A stretch of DNA of 64,000 nt from Escherichia coli (GTDB lineage Bacteria > Pseudomonadota > Gammaproteobacteria > Enterobacterales > Enterobacteriaceae), in the NCBI RefSeq assembly GCF_044324785.1, contig NZ_CP172127.1. The stretch is one strand, 5' to 3'. This document shows positions 10,863 to 54,705 of the stretch, in pieces. The position numbers and the translations under genes are program-made. Within the stretch, counting starts at the first letter, position 1, and every line of letters begins with the position of its first letter. The notes beneath the pieces were generated by a model. The model was not told where the DNA came from and did no database searches. It saw only the letters and a list, made by a program, of their open reading frames with translations.

Positions 10863-11308
10863 ATCAGTCGCTTACCCTTGCTTTTTTGATTGCCGCCGGA
10901 ATTGGTCTGGTGGTGCAAAACACGCTGATGGTGCGCATCACCCAGACCTCCTCTACCATTCTCATCGCCATGCTGCTGAACTCACTGGTGGGGATTGTGC
11001 TCTTTGTATCTATTTTATGGTTTAAACAAGGCATGGCGGGGTTTGGCGAACTGGTGTCCAGCGTGCGCTGGTGGACACTTATACCTGGCTTGCTGGGATC
11101 GTTTTTTGTCTTCGCCAGTATCAGCGGATATCAGAATGTGGGGGCGGCTACGACTATTGCGGTACTGGTCGCCAGTCAGTTGATTGGCGGTCTGGTGCTG
11201 GATATCTTTCGCAGTCATGGCGTACCACTACGGGCGTTGATCGGCCCAATTTGTGGCGCAATTTTACTTGTGGTTGGTGCCTGGCTGGTGGCCAGGCGCA
11301 CATTTTAA
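10859..11308 (+). CDS. ydcZ: Inner-membrane protein, DUF606 family
   Basis: 149-aa hydrophobic ORF; its start overlaps the mnaT stop (ATGA). Confidence 0.8.
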   Translation: MNQSLTLAFLIAAGIGLVVQNTLMVRITQTSSTILIAMLLNSLVGIVLFVSILWFKQGMAGFGELVSSVRWWTLIPGLLGSFFVFASISGYQNVGAATTIAVLVASQLIGGLVLDIFRSHGVPLRALIGPICGAILLVVGAWLVARRTF

Positions 11309-11542
11309 TCAGAGGATGGTGCCACCTTTGGTTAACTGTTCGTGGCGCGCTTCCATATCTTCTTTATGCTTGCGACCGTGATGAGCAATAGCGGTGCGCA
11401 AACGCTGCTGCTGGGTGTAGCGATCTTCCCGACTTAACTCCGCGTCATCGCTCAGGGCGATTAATAATTCGTTCATATGGGCAATGACGCTCTCTTCAAT
11501 CGCGGCATCCACGCGCGCGATGACTTCATCCAGATGCGACAT
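11309..11542 (-). CDS. ydcY: Small uncharacterised protein
   Basis: 77-aa ORF convergent with ydcZ, the two stop codons abutting; synteny. Confidence 0.7.
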   Translation of the reverse strand: MSHLDEVIARVDAAIEESVIAHMNELLIALSDDAELSREDRYTQQQRLRTAIAHHGRKHKEDMEARHEQLTKGGTIL

Positions 11543-11627
11543 ACTTTCTCCTTAGCCACTTGTGAAATTTATCGATTCATCCAAATGATATAAGTCTGCG
11601 TGGTGCCGTCAAGCCAGTGCGTAAGAT

Positions 11628-11801
11628 TTAAAACAGAGAAAACAACAGCGCCACCGGGAAACTCATCGGCCATGTAGCCCCCACCAGAAAGGCACTTAAG
11701 AAACGGATGCGTTTCTTATCGTGAGAAAGAAACCAGGTGATAAGAAATGCGATTGCTGCCATAACCGCATAAAAAACAAGCATGTGTTGATAGAGAGACA
11801 T
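11628..11801 (-). CDS. ortT: Small membrane toxin-like protein OrtT (YdcX), 57 aa
   Basis: Internal Met of the 73-aa track ORF gives MSLYQHMLVFYAVMAAIAFLITWFL…, which I recognise as OrtT. Confidence 0.75.
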   Translation of the reverse strand: MSLYQHMLVFYAVMAAIAFLITWFLSHDKKRIRFLSAFLVGATWPMSFPVALLFSLF

Positions 11802-11995
11802 GTACGGGCGTCCAGCCAGATGAATAAAACGCGCGCAAATATGCGTCATTTTTTGACGTGCATCAAGTTTTTTAACCGGTTTGAGAAGAAAACATCAAAC
11901 AGCAACTTGCCCTTATCCATCTTCAGAATGAGTATTATTGCGGATTTTCTTAACCCGTACTATACACATAGGGGCAATGATAAAAGGTGGCAAAA

Positions 11996-12091
11996 ATGAA
12001 TGTTTCCAGTAGAACTGTAGTACTGATAAATGTCTTTGCTGCTGTTGGTTTGTTTACTCTTATCTCTATGAGATTTGGCTGGTTTATTTGA
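11996..12091 (+). CDS. yncL: Small membrane protein YncL, 31 aa
   Basis: Hand translation: MNVSSRTVVLINVFAAVGLFTLISMRFGWFI*. Below the ORF-track length cutoff; matches the known small protein YncL. Confidence 0.7.
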   Translation: MNVSSRTVVLINVFAAVGLFTLISMRFGWFI

Positions 12092-12492
12092 TGTAGTGAT
12101 TTTGCACGCAGCACGTACTGTCAGAGAAATCAACTCTCTGACAGTACACAAGATCTTCTCATACTCTCCAGGTTTACAACATTATCCTTAATATTTACTT
12201 CTTTTTGCTGGCATCTACATTGAAATGAGTAGAAAACATCCCCCTACTGTCGTCTATACAAACAGCTTACTGATTCAAAGGGAATCTTGTTTTCACATTT
12301 TTCTATCATCAATACTTTAGACGCGCGGGAGTCTATAAATGCTTTATACTTTCAAGGAATAACGTAAATATAAAAAGATGGCGTAAAGTATATGCATGGC
12401 AGGATGATTGCAACCTCCTTGATGACGCTGTCCCATTGAAATTGCAAACCCCGCACTGGTTATCTTACTCATTTATCATGTAAAACAGACAA

Positions 12493-13302
12493 TTATAGGT
12501 CTCTGAATATCTCAGAAAGATTGAATTTTTTATAGTCCCTCTCTTGAATATTTCCATTTGATATCAATCGATTCATCTCTTCAACAAAATAATTTATATC
12601 ATCACATTTGTTATTATCCGGAAGATCTGAGTAATTATAATTCCACCACTTTATTCTCAACAATTCATCAATAATATTTGAATCAAATCTAAATCTGATT
12701 ATTTTTGCAGGAACTCCTGCAACTATGGCATATGGGGGCACATCTTTGGTAACAACGGAATTGGCAGCAATAACAGCACCATCACCTATTGCGATACCAC
12801 CTTTCAATACAACATCATTTCCTATCCAGACATCATTTCCTATAATCGGATTTTCAGGTTTGGTAATGAATGGTTTCAATGCCCAGCTACGTTCAAACTC
12901 ACTCATAGCAAACTTATCAAATTCACCGTTATAAGTCATCATGTGAGTAGTAAAACGATTCAAAGGATGATTTCCACCCATTATTTTTACATTTGATGCA
13001 ATACTACAAAATCGACCTATATGTATATTCCCTGTAAAATGACAGGTCGGAAATGAAAAAGCGCCGACACTGGAGAAATTTTTTACAGGCATTGTTGAAT
13101 ATTCTTCAGCAATAACATTATCTTCAATTGTTATCTTGTCACCTTTTGAGAAAAGAAATAAATTCCTTTCTTTATACGACTTCTTCCCCTTATGATTTAA
13201 AAAGATTTTATTATCCATACAAAACTCAAAGTGTTTTTTCGTCCACCTGAAGGTAAGGGTTTTATTTTTATCTTCCGTGAATTTATACAATTGAACTTTC
13301 AT
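12493..13302 (-). CDS. Hexapeptide-repeat (left-handed beta-helix) acetyltransferase of the xenobiotic acetyltransferase family, Vat/CatB-like
   Basis: 269-aa ORF in an AT-rich island. C-terminal block IGNDVWIGNDVVLKGGIAIGDGAVIAANSVVTKDVPPYAIVAGVPAKIIRFRFD…LLRIKWWNY closely resembles the Vat(D)/CatB signature as I remember it. True start may be an internal Met. Confidence 0.75.
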   Translation of the reverse strand: MKVQLYKFTEDKNKTLTFRWTKKHFEFCMDNKIFLNHKGKKSYKERNLFLFSKGDKITIEDNVIAEEYSTMPVKNFSSVGAFSFPTCHFTGNIHIGRFCSIASNVKIMGGNHPLNRFTTHMMTYNGEFDKFAMSEFERSWALKPFITKPENPIIGNDVWIGNDVVLKGGIAIGDGAVIAANSVVTKDVPPYAIVAGVPAKIIRFRFDSNIIDELLRIKWWNYNYSDLPDNNKCDDINYFVEEMNRLISNGNIQERDYKKFNLSEIFRDL

Positions 13303-13477
13303 TGTTAATACTTCTACTTATAAATTATTAGGTTAATAACGATACTCTAAAGCCTTATGCGAATCAACTATGACAGGATGAAAAATCACCAACATACATT
13401 TAGATCATAATAACTGCCTAATTTTTCCGCTAGTTATTAATGTAATCATTCTGATACTTAATCACCATTACACTCAG

Positions 13478-13516
13478 AACCTAAAACGATAGTGGCCGCC
13501 CTATAACAGCCACTAA
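13478..13516 (-). terminator. Putative patD terminator hairpin
   Basis: Inverted repeat tagtggc / gccacta just downstream of the patD stop, with a T-run following on the minus strand. Confidence 0.4.
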
Positions 13517-13524
13517 CATTTAAC

Positions 13525-14949
13525 TTAATGTTTAACCATGACGTGGCGGACGACGGTGTAATCCTCCAGCCCATAAAGTGACATATCCTTGCCGTAACCA
13601 GAAAGTTTCTGCCCACCGTGCGGCATTTCACTTACCAGCATGAAATGGGTATTGACCCAGGTACAACCATATTGCAGCCGCGCGCTGACGCGATGCGCCC
13701 TGCCCACATCTTTCGTCCATACCGAGGATGCAAGTCCGTACTGGCTGTCATTTGCCCAGTTCACCACCTGTTCTTCGTTGTCGAAATGCGTAACACTCAC
13801 TACCGGACCAAATACCTCTTTTTGCACGATGGCATCGTCCTGTAATGCGCCAGCCAGTAGCGTCGGCGCATAGTAATAGCCATTACCCTTGCGCTTTTCA
13901 CCGCCAGTGATCACTTTGATGTGCCCTGTCGCTTTCGCCTCTTCTACCGCTTTGCTGACGCGTTCGAGATGCGCCAGCGAGCTTAAAGGTCCAAGCTCCG
14001 TAGACTCGTCATCCGGTGCACCAGATTTTAACGTTGCCACTGCAGCACCGAGTTTTTCCACCAGCGTATCGTAAATACCTTTTTGCGCGTAGATCCGACA
14101 AGCCGCAGTACAATCCTGTCCGGCATTGTAATAGCCAAAAGTACGTACACCTTCGGCCACCGCTTCAATATCCGCATCATCAAAAACTATCACTGGCGCT
14201 TTGCCTCCAAGTTCCATATGAGTACGCTTTATGGACGGCGCGGTATGGCTGATGATGTGCTCGCCAGTGGCGATAGAGCCCGTCAGTGACACCATCCGCA
14301 CTTTGGGATGTCCGGTCAGCGGATCGCCCACCGTTTTGCCTCTGCCAAACAGTACGTTAATCACGCCTGCCGGGAAGATATCTTTCGCCAGCTCTGCCAA
14401 CTTCAACGCTGTCAGCGGGGTAATTTCTGATGGTTTGAGCACTACGCAGTTCCCTGCCGCCAGCGCCGGAGCCAGTTTCCACGCAGCCATCATCAGCGGA
14501 TAATTCCACGGTGCGATAGAAGCCACGACCCCCAACGGATCGCGACGGATCATCGAAGTATGACCTTCAAGATATTCACCTGCCGCCAGACCATGCAGGC
14601 AGCGAGCTGCTCCGGCGAAAAAGCGAAAGACATCGACAATCGCCGGAATTTCATCATTGAACGCACTATGCAGCGGTTTACCACAGTTACGGGACTCCAG
14701 TTCGGCAAAAACCTGACCATTTTCTTCGATAACATCAGCCAGTTTCAGCAGGCATTCCGCACGCGCTTTCGGCGTGGTTTGCCCCCATTCGGCAAATGCT
14801 GCATCTGCCGCGCGCACAGCAGCATCCACCTGTTCTGCGGATGCCTCGGAAATCTCCAGTAAAACGTCCCCCGTTGCCGGATTATAGACAGGCTGTTTTT
14901 CCCCTTCGCCGCTAACCAGTTCTCCGTTTATCAGTAACTTATGTTGCAT
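13525..14949 (-). CDS. patD: Gamma-aminobutyraldehyde dehydrogenase (aldehyde dehydrogenase family)
   Basis: 474-aa [21 protein letters not shown]…; ALDH catalytic motifs; synteny with ydcSTUV. Confidence 0.9.
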
Positions 14950-47531: not shown

Positions 47532-47584
47532 CCGGACACGGTCTTGATGTGGACTGTAGATATTCAGTCCACATCTCAATCCAC

Positions 47585-54648: not shown

Positions 54649-54705
54649 TCCATGCCATTAAAAAAGAAACAAAAGGGAAATGCATCTTTCCCTTTTGTAT
54701 ATTCG

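Follow-up and report, generated by a model that had tools for sequence, protein, structure and literature searches.

Within the 64-kb stretch of Escherichia coli DNA analysed here (referred to in its entirety as the window), the local gene order is curA, mnaT, ydcZ, ydcY, ortT and yncL (on the + strand), followed by an AT-rich segment that carries an acetyltransferase gene, and then by patD (on the − strand). The yncL gene encodes a small membrane stress protein of only 31 amino acids, and the products of related loci match the Pfam family PF28073:YncL. Between the yncL stop codon and the AT-rich segment, the sequence is occupied by a short spacer, a perfect hairpin and a C-rich tract, positioned as follows.

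11996–12091, + strand: yncL coding sequence, 31-amino-acid small membrane stress protein (open reading frame; annotated as yncL in RefSeq genomes that have the identical region)
12092–12114, + strand: 3′-UTR spacer of 23 nt, from the yncL stop to the hairpin (alignments)
12115–12127, + strand: 5′ arm of the stem, GTACTGTCAGAGA
12128–12134, + strand: loop AATCAAC, whose sequence and length vary among lineages (AAATCAGTG, 9 nt, in K-12)
12135–12147, + strand: 3′ arm of the stem, TCTCTGACAGTAC
12148–12156, + strand: putative 3′ end of the mature yncL mRNA, transferred from K-12 by homology
12148–12247, + strand: C-rich, G-poor tract, candidate Rho-loading region (composition count)
12178–12197, no strand: left direct-repeat copy AACATTATCCTTAATATTTA, left junction of the island; context, outside the hairpin element
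12493–13302, − strand: acetyltransferase gene, 269 amino acids, hexapeptide-repeat protein
13515–13534, no strand: right direct-repeat copy AACATTTAACTTAATGTTTA, right junction of the island, overlapping the last codons and the stop of patD; context
13525–14949, − strand: patD open reading frame

An inverted-repeat search recovered exactly the arms and the loop described by the first-pass annotation, namely two arms of 13 nt, 100% complementary to one another and separated by a 7-nt loop, with the hairpin starting 23 nt past the yncL stop codon. The RNA fold calculated for the window hairpin has an energy of −20.1 kcal/mol (z = −6.2 versus shuffles) and the stem, being a perfect palindrome, folds equally on either strand. 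The stem had been described as unusually long and perfect, and it is the sole perfect inverted repeat of at least 13 bp with a loop of 3–12 nt in the 64-kb window, against a chance expectation of 0.01 on average and of 1 at most in 100 dinucleotide shuffles. Searching the window for the hairpin sequence with up to 3 mismatches returned 1 match, and none of the curated Rfam families searched over positions 11000–14000 gave a match overlapping the hairpin, even at E values up to 10. Two shorter perfect hairpins are found elsewhere in the window, one at 47546–47575 (11 bp, 8-nt loop, devoid of T-tract) and another at 54669–54698 (12 bp, 6-nt loop, ACAAAAGGGAAA/TTTCCCTTTTGT), the latter with an A-rich run ahead of it and the appearance of an intrinsic terminator working in both directions.

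A canonical intrinsic terminator would have at least 5 T in the 8 nt directly after the stem. The 8 nt beyond the yncL stem read ACAAGATC on the + strand and GTGCTGCG on the − strand, i.e., 1 T and 2 T, respectively; there is thus no T-tract next to the stem on either strand, as had been stated at first pass, and the site was not called by the terminator scan. No A-tract flanks the hairpin on either side, and six of the 13 pairs are G-C, a proportion that passes the stem rule of the scan and yet does not make the stem GC-rich. The absence of a U-tract disqualifies the hairpin as a canonical intrinsic terminator, and the view that it is something other than a simple terminator of this type stands. 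A promoter-like hit overlapping the hairpin at 12138–12165 (score 9/12) was dismissed, such hits being no commoner in the window than in shuffled sequence.

A 47-nt query centred on the hairpin found matches in 5411 of the 5426 complete E. coli genomes; the matches fell at a median of two “places” per genome, and local BLAST identified the second place as the same locus on the opposite strand, as expected of a palindrome. The hairpin is therefore present at a single locus per genome and is not a REP element. A known repetitive extragenic element, the origin that would have spoken against the first-pass reading of the palindrome, does not fit one locus per genome in 5411 genomes and the lack of any Rfam match. 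The K-12 form of the hairpin (CGTACTGTCAGAG-AAATCAGTG-CTCTGACAGTACG) is carried by 4292 genomes and the window-type loop by 1089, where it closes a 14-bp stem; at position 12148, the window harbors a private G-to-A change that abolishes the outermost (14th) C-G pair of the other island-type genomes, and the 47-nt query has no exact match among the complete E. coli genomes. Together with the adjoining 40 bp on its right side (12128–12186), the loop allele makes up a haplotype linked to the presence of the acetyltransferase island (1089 genomes with the window-type loop, 1153 with the island). The same flank allele is present in cryptic Escherichia lineages with an empty site (L005), and strain A10 (L002) is recombinant when compared with K-12 (L001/L004), as it combines the K-12 loop with the island-type flank and the island.

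The history of the neighboring island was read from a 1.6-kb regional query that matched 5415 of the 5426 complete E. coli genomes. The acetyltransferase segment is present in 1153 of these and the others display an empty site, with a gap of 96 bp between yncL and patD. The island itself spans 12198–13514 and is flanked by imperfect 20-nt direct repeats (12178–12197 and 13515–13534) identical at 16 of 20 positions; its first base lies 50 bp to the right of the hairpin, and the left repeat copy at 31–50 bp. The single repeat copy of K-12 resembles a hybrid of the two, and a deletion between direct repeats is as plausible as an insertion in accounting for the island. No recombinase gene is encoded within it, and terminal inverted repeats were looked for, with none convincing. 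A diverged copy of the left end of the island is found in Escherichia sp. MOD1-EC7003 (L007), which lacks patD as well as the upstream ydcSTUV region (positions 1–2100 of that locus); the diverged remnant of the island, downstream of yncL, has a U32-peptidase-like gene (rlhA/ydcP-like, 456 amino acids, partial) as its neighbor.

The island protein is a relative of xenobiotic acetyltransferases, with matches to the Vat, CatB and phosphonate-transferase families at E values of 1e-31 to 1e-38. Naming it a Vat or a CatB resistance enzyme was rejected, as it falls below every curated NCBIfam cut-off; its RefSeq name is “CatB-related O-acetyltransferase”. A terminator-like hairpin on the − strand (13490–13515, TAGTGGC...GCCACTA followed by TCGTTTTAGG) immediately follows the stop codon of patD, at the right-hand extremity of the island. 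As it lies inside the island, the structure at the 3′ end of patD differs from that of K-12 in island-bearing strains.

Conservation of the hairpin was followed outside E. coli by a scan of species-representative genomes anchored on YdcY, YncL being too short a query at 31 amino acids. Among the 80 YdcY-anchored loci, 74 were uninformative, and ortT and yncL were found beside ydcY only in Escherichia loci. The hairpin follows yncL in E. whittamii, in E. albertii and in four further Escherichia lineages, and a change of downstream neighbor does not part it from yncL: it is retained in E. albertii (L008) and also in L007, which has lost patD and carries rlhA-like DNA next to it. In the resulting alignment of 8 Escherichia lineages (a small sample of lineages related to one another, so that the covariation is supportive rather than conclusive), 95% of the cells are paired; out of 15 stem pairs, 4 show double changes, none a one-sided change, 8 never vary and 3 depart only through unpaired cells. 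By comparison, control structures slid by 1–3 columns have 22–50% of their cells paired and 0–2 double changes. In the outer part of the stem, substitutions preserve Watson-Crick pairing (G-C replaced by A-U, U-A by C-G and, in E. albertii, U-A by A-U), the inner 8–9 bp of the stem are highly conserved, and the loop is free to vary in sequence and length, so that the hairpin, both arms included, spans 31 or 33 alignment columns. The spacer that separates the stop codon from the hairpin (12092–12114) hardly changes within Escherichia, being better conserved than the 3′ flank or the loop, and its GCA.GCAG core is invariant. As for the protein, the databases contain a YncL variant of 82 amino acids (P0002) whose reading frame continues beyond the usual stop codon, through the hairpin and on into DNA antisense to patD; presumably, this reflects either a miscalled gene or a rare allele that has lost the stop or shifted frame.

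These comparisons bear on two readings in which the palindrome would act as DNA. The first-pass annotation had placed it at the edge of the AT-rich island and proposed that it could mark an insertion junction; in that case, the hairpin would be an attachment site, a target or a scar of the acquisition of the acetyltransferase island, an idea that draws on the proximity of AT-rich island DNA, only 50 bp away, and on the linkage between loop allele and island. However, those 50 bp separate the hairpin from the first island base, the junctions sit at the island's own direct repeats, no recombinase is encoded by the island, and strain A10, with its island and its K-12-type loop, reduces the linkage to mere haplotype structure. 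Above all, the hairpin is essentially unchanged and at the same distance from yncL in empty-site genomes aligned with island-bearing ones (K-12 lineage and O157), and it is intact in other empty-site Escherichia, including other species (L005, L006, L009 and L010). The comparison with the yncL-patD region of K-12, proposed at first pass as a check, thus found the palindrome at no junction, and the alignments indicate that the hairpin is ancestral and part of the yncL transcription unit, the island having apparently been gained or lost 50 bp beyond it. The attachment-site reading is, on this comparative evidence, refuted, and we regard it as extremely improbable. The other reading, also offered at first pass, makes the palindrome a protein-binding site, for instance the operator of a dimeric regulator with LexA-like or TrpR-like half-sites (GTACTG...CAGTAC). 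Its perfect symmetry and the strong conservation of the inner 8–9 bp would suit such a site, and the K-12 allele even contains a CTGT-N8-TCAG motif resembling a LexA box. This box was rejected, since its second half belongs to the loop, which is variable, and neither the window allele nor other Escherichia species have that half. Moreover, outer positions vary as compensatory pairs (4 of 15), the site is located downstream of both neighboring genes and not at a promoter, binding data for it were looked for and none were found, and the distance between the arms shifts by 2 nt among lineages, a change in spacing that a dimeric operator would not tolerate; the operator idea fails for these reasons and is very unlikely to be correct. 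Compensatory pairs, the absence of one-sided changes and a variable loop instead suggest that selection maintains an RNA helix and not an operator.

Beyond Escherichia, distant YncL homologues were collected from a search of 1.84 billion representative proteins and their contigs compared. In one of them (L087), where the order ortT-yncL-aldehyde dehydrogenase is found, a perfect hairpin of 11 bp (TCGATTATCCG/CGGATAATCGA), unrelated to that of Escherichia and likewise without a U-tract, lies 41 nt past the yncL stop. Three others (L088–L090), with a Klebsiella-like context, have a canonical terminator after yncL, made of an A-tract, a GC stem and a U-tract. Since the 3′ structures differ across genera, the conserved requirement is a 3′ stem-loop after yncL and not this particular sequence; judging from these contigs, both the sequence and the type of the stem-loop have been replaced during evolution. 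Adjacency of ortT, yncL and an aldehyde dehydrogenase gene is kept in all four of these contigs (L087–L090). In the non-Escherichia loci of the YdcY scan (L011–L084; Citrobacter, Enterobacter, Salmonella, Klebsiella, Kluyvera and others), ydcY is not found within 2.5 kb of ortT, yncL or patD, and the ydcY-ortT adjacency thus appears to be specific to Escherichia.

All the RNA data that bear on the hairpin come from K-12, from which the window strain differs in the downstream DNA (the island), in the loop and in one flanking base. By coordinate mapping, the hairpin corresponds to 1517043–1517075 of MG1655; the K-12 form folds at −18.1 to −21.6 kcal/mol and is followed by the bases GCAAGATC, with no U-rich tract. 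A curated Term-seq 3′ end is located at 1517039 (−), on the yncL strand and 4 nt beyond the stem (Adams et al. 2021, PMC7815308); its sequence reads ...GUACGCAA-3′, given also as ...CUCUGACAGUACGCAA-3′, and it is supported by 75,265 reads in LB at OD 0.4, 536,300 in LB at OD 2.0 and 433,399 in M63 (PMC7815308 supplementary file 1), which ranks it with the stronger ends of the minus strand in the portion of that table consulted. Being more than 50 nt from yncL, this end is labeled only “antisense to patD” in the table. A TRS study independently reports a “Primary” yncL terminus at 1517034/5, i.e., 8–9 nt beyond the stem, with the same fold at −21.6 kcal/mol and a 66-nt 3′ UTR whose coverage is higher than that of the coding sequence (PMC10687069). 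The Term-seq position corresponds to 12151 in the window and the TRS position to 12155–12156; the site is not listed in the TERMITe supplements. Together with the covariation, the RNA 3′ end that K-12 displays 4 nt past the stem identifies the palindrome as the RNA structural element that had been put forward at first pass as the other option.

Further downstream on the same strand, a Rho termination region is reported in K-12 at 1516753 (−), about 290 nt beyond the hairpin, with a Rho score of 16.6 and p = 5e-21 (PMC7815308 supplementary file 2). Upstream and downstream reads at this region amount to 220 and 9 in untreated cells and to 106 and 72 in the presence of bicyclomycin (PMC7815308); the score is computed over 800-nt windows, and part of the downstream bicyclomycin signal could stem from transcripts other than yncL. 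The structure of the stem, its conservation, the position of the 3′ end and the Rho-sensitive region are established in K-12. In the window, the ratio of C to G beyond the hairpin, read in the direction of yncL, is 3.6 and falls to 1.8 over the first ~100–125 nt (12 C and 3 G in the first 50 nt), and in K-12 it is 2.1 and then about 1.0–2.1, a modest bias. This C-rich tract is a candidate rut-like region for Rho loading, a role suggested by the general pattern described for Rho-terminated transcripts (PMC6061677) and by the K-12 Rho region at 1516753.

Several observations describe the transcript to which this 3′ end belongs. A strong SELEX peak of the RpoS holoenzyme is found at the E. coli yncL promoter region (PMC5493296), and the yncL RNA of Salmonella, first described as the sRNA STnc1110, is detected as a discrete, sigma-S-dependent band of 195 nt (PMC4014581, PMC5437024), with an extra band of 120 nt; the 195-nt RNA fits a short discrete transcript that ends at a 3′ structure. 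yncL has also been reported as a RIL-seq/TRIC-seq partner of RprA and KilS. A crude prediction of the RprA-yncL duplex gave −44.4, no better than controls (shuffled mean −43.9), and this prediction provides no evidence for the hairpin or the 3′ UTR as the site of RprA pairing.

Taken together, these data make us confident that the hairpin is the 3′-terminal stem-loop of the yncL mRNA. This raises the question as to how the 3′ end is generated. Stable stem-loops devoid of a U-tract have been described as a class in which transcripts terminated by Rho acquire precise steady-state 3′ ends just past the structure (Dar and Sorek 2018, PMC6061677); the sequence downstream is biased towards C over G, and the ends are made by PNPase and RNase II trimming the RNA back to the structure (PMC6061677). 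By the same route, RNA polymerase would transcribe through the hairpin of the short sigma-S-dependent yncL unit, Rho would load on the C-rich, G-poor RNA beyond it and terminate transcription diffusely downstream, in a zone that is antisense to patD in K-12 and would lie within the AT-rich island in the window. Exonucleases acting from 3′ to 5′ (PNPase, RNase II) would then degrade the tail as far as the hairpin, which would block their progress and thereby provide the mRNA with a precise 3′ end and with stability. This sequence of read-through, downstream Rho termination and trimming, with the hairpin fixing and protecting the yncL 3′ end, is probably what takes place; the read-through of yncL itself, the exonuclease trimming, the stabilizing effect and the transfer to the window strain are what we infer.

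A rival account, not exclusive of the former, holds that the hairpin is itself an intrinsic terminator devoid of a U-tract, or a pause hairpin, possibly in both directions; head-on collisions of polymerases between the convergent genes might assist it, and Rho would only clear the read-through. The sharp and very abundant 3′ end a few nt past the stem would be expected of such an element, as would the location of a perfect palindrome, able to fold on both strands, between convergent genes, and weak intrinsic termination and Rho may coexist (PMC6061677). The patD-yncL pair is also listed in the MG1655 “excludome” of convergent pairs with overlapping transcripts (PMC12288877), a listing that cuts both ways, as it implies that transcription crosses the intergenic region. 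Against this account stand the absence of a U-tract or an A-tract on either side and the strong bicyclomycin-dependent rise downstream, unexpected after an efficient intrinsic terminator; in addition, the two published tables searched (PMC7815308, PMC10687069) give 3′ ends on the yncL strand only and none in the patD sense. Termination at the hairpin itself is thus rather unlikely as the principal source of the 3′ end. More doubtful still is the combined proposal that the hairpin is an active two-way boundary setting the extent of the patD-yncL excludon, where it would halt or pause polymerases coming from yncL and from patD or the island gene, and that the hairpin-capped 3′ UTR fragment is a stable regulatory RNA. 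The latter part is hinted at by the TRS coverage, higher over the 3′ UTR than over the coding sequence, and by the extra 120-nt band of STnc1110. Read-through followed by Rho termination and trimming back to the hairpin remains the preferred reading.

In terms of significance, the hairpin is an ordinary element, effectively recorded already in published 3′-end tables, and no paper discusses the site individually. For the window strain, the result defines the boundary at which the yncL transcription unit ends on its 3′ side, and it matters little beyond annotation. As the island lies beyond this boundary, read-through from yncL would enter island DNA in the window strain instead of sequence antisense to patD. 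The hairpin also constitutes a further clean, covariation-supported case of the known protective stem-loops that lack a U-tract, and the comparison across genera suggests that 3′-end structures were swapped in evolution while their position was kept (U-less in Escherichia and in L087, a terminator in the Klebsiella-like loci).

In comparison with known systems, the yncL hairpin shares with canonical intrinsic terminators the presence of a stem-loop at the 3′ end of a gene and a folding energy in the same range; it differs from them by the lack of a U-tract and of an upstream A-tract, by the low proportion of G-C pairs (6/13) and by the Rho signal found downstream. It is reminiscent of the bidirectional terminators of convergent genes (Ju et al. 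2019, as cited in PMC7815308) in that it is located between convergent genes and has a symmetric stem that folds on both strands; unlike these terminators, it has no flanking A and U tracts, and its mapped end is on one strand only. REP/BIME elements are likewise extragenic palindromes able to block 3′ exonucleases and to stabilize the upstream mRNA, but the yncL hairpin is found at one locus per genome, has no REP consensus and is confined to the yncL 3′ UTR. Salmonella STnc1110 offers a parallel as the orthologous short, sigma-S-dependent transcript of ~195 nt that contains yncL, a likeness in transcript size and regulation. Closest are the U-less protective stem-loops (PMC6061677). Among these, the perfect stem of 13–14 bp stands at the long end of the range and trimming is, here, something we infer; like them, the yncL hairpin is a stable stem-loop without a U-rich tail, with a precise 3′ end a few nt downstream, more C than G in the sequence that follows and a bicyclomycin-sensitive region further down.
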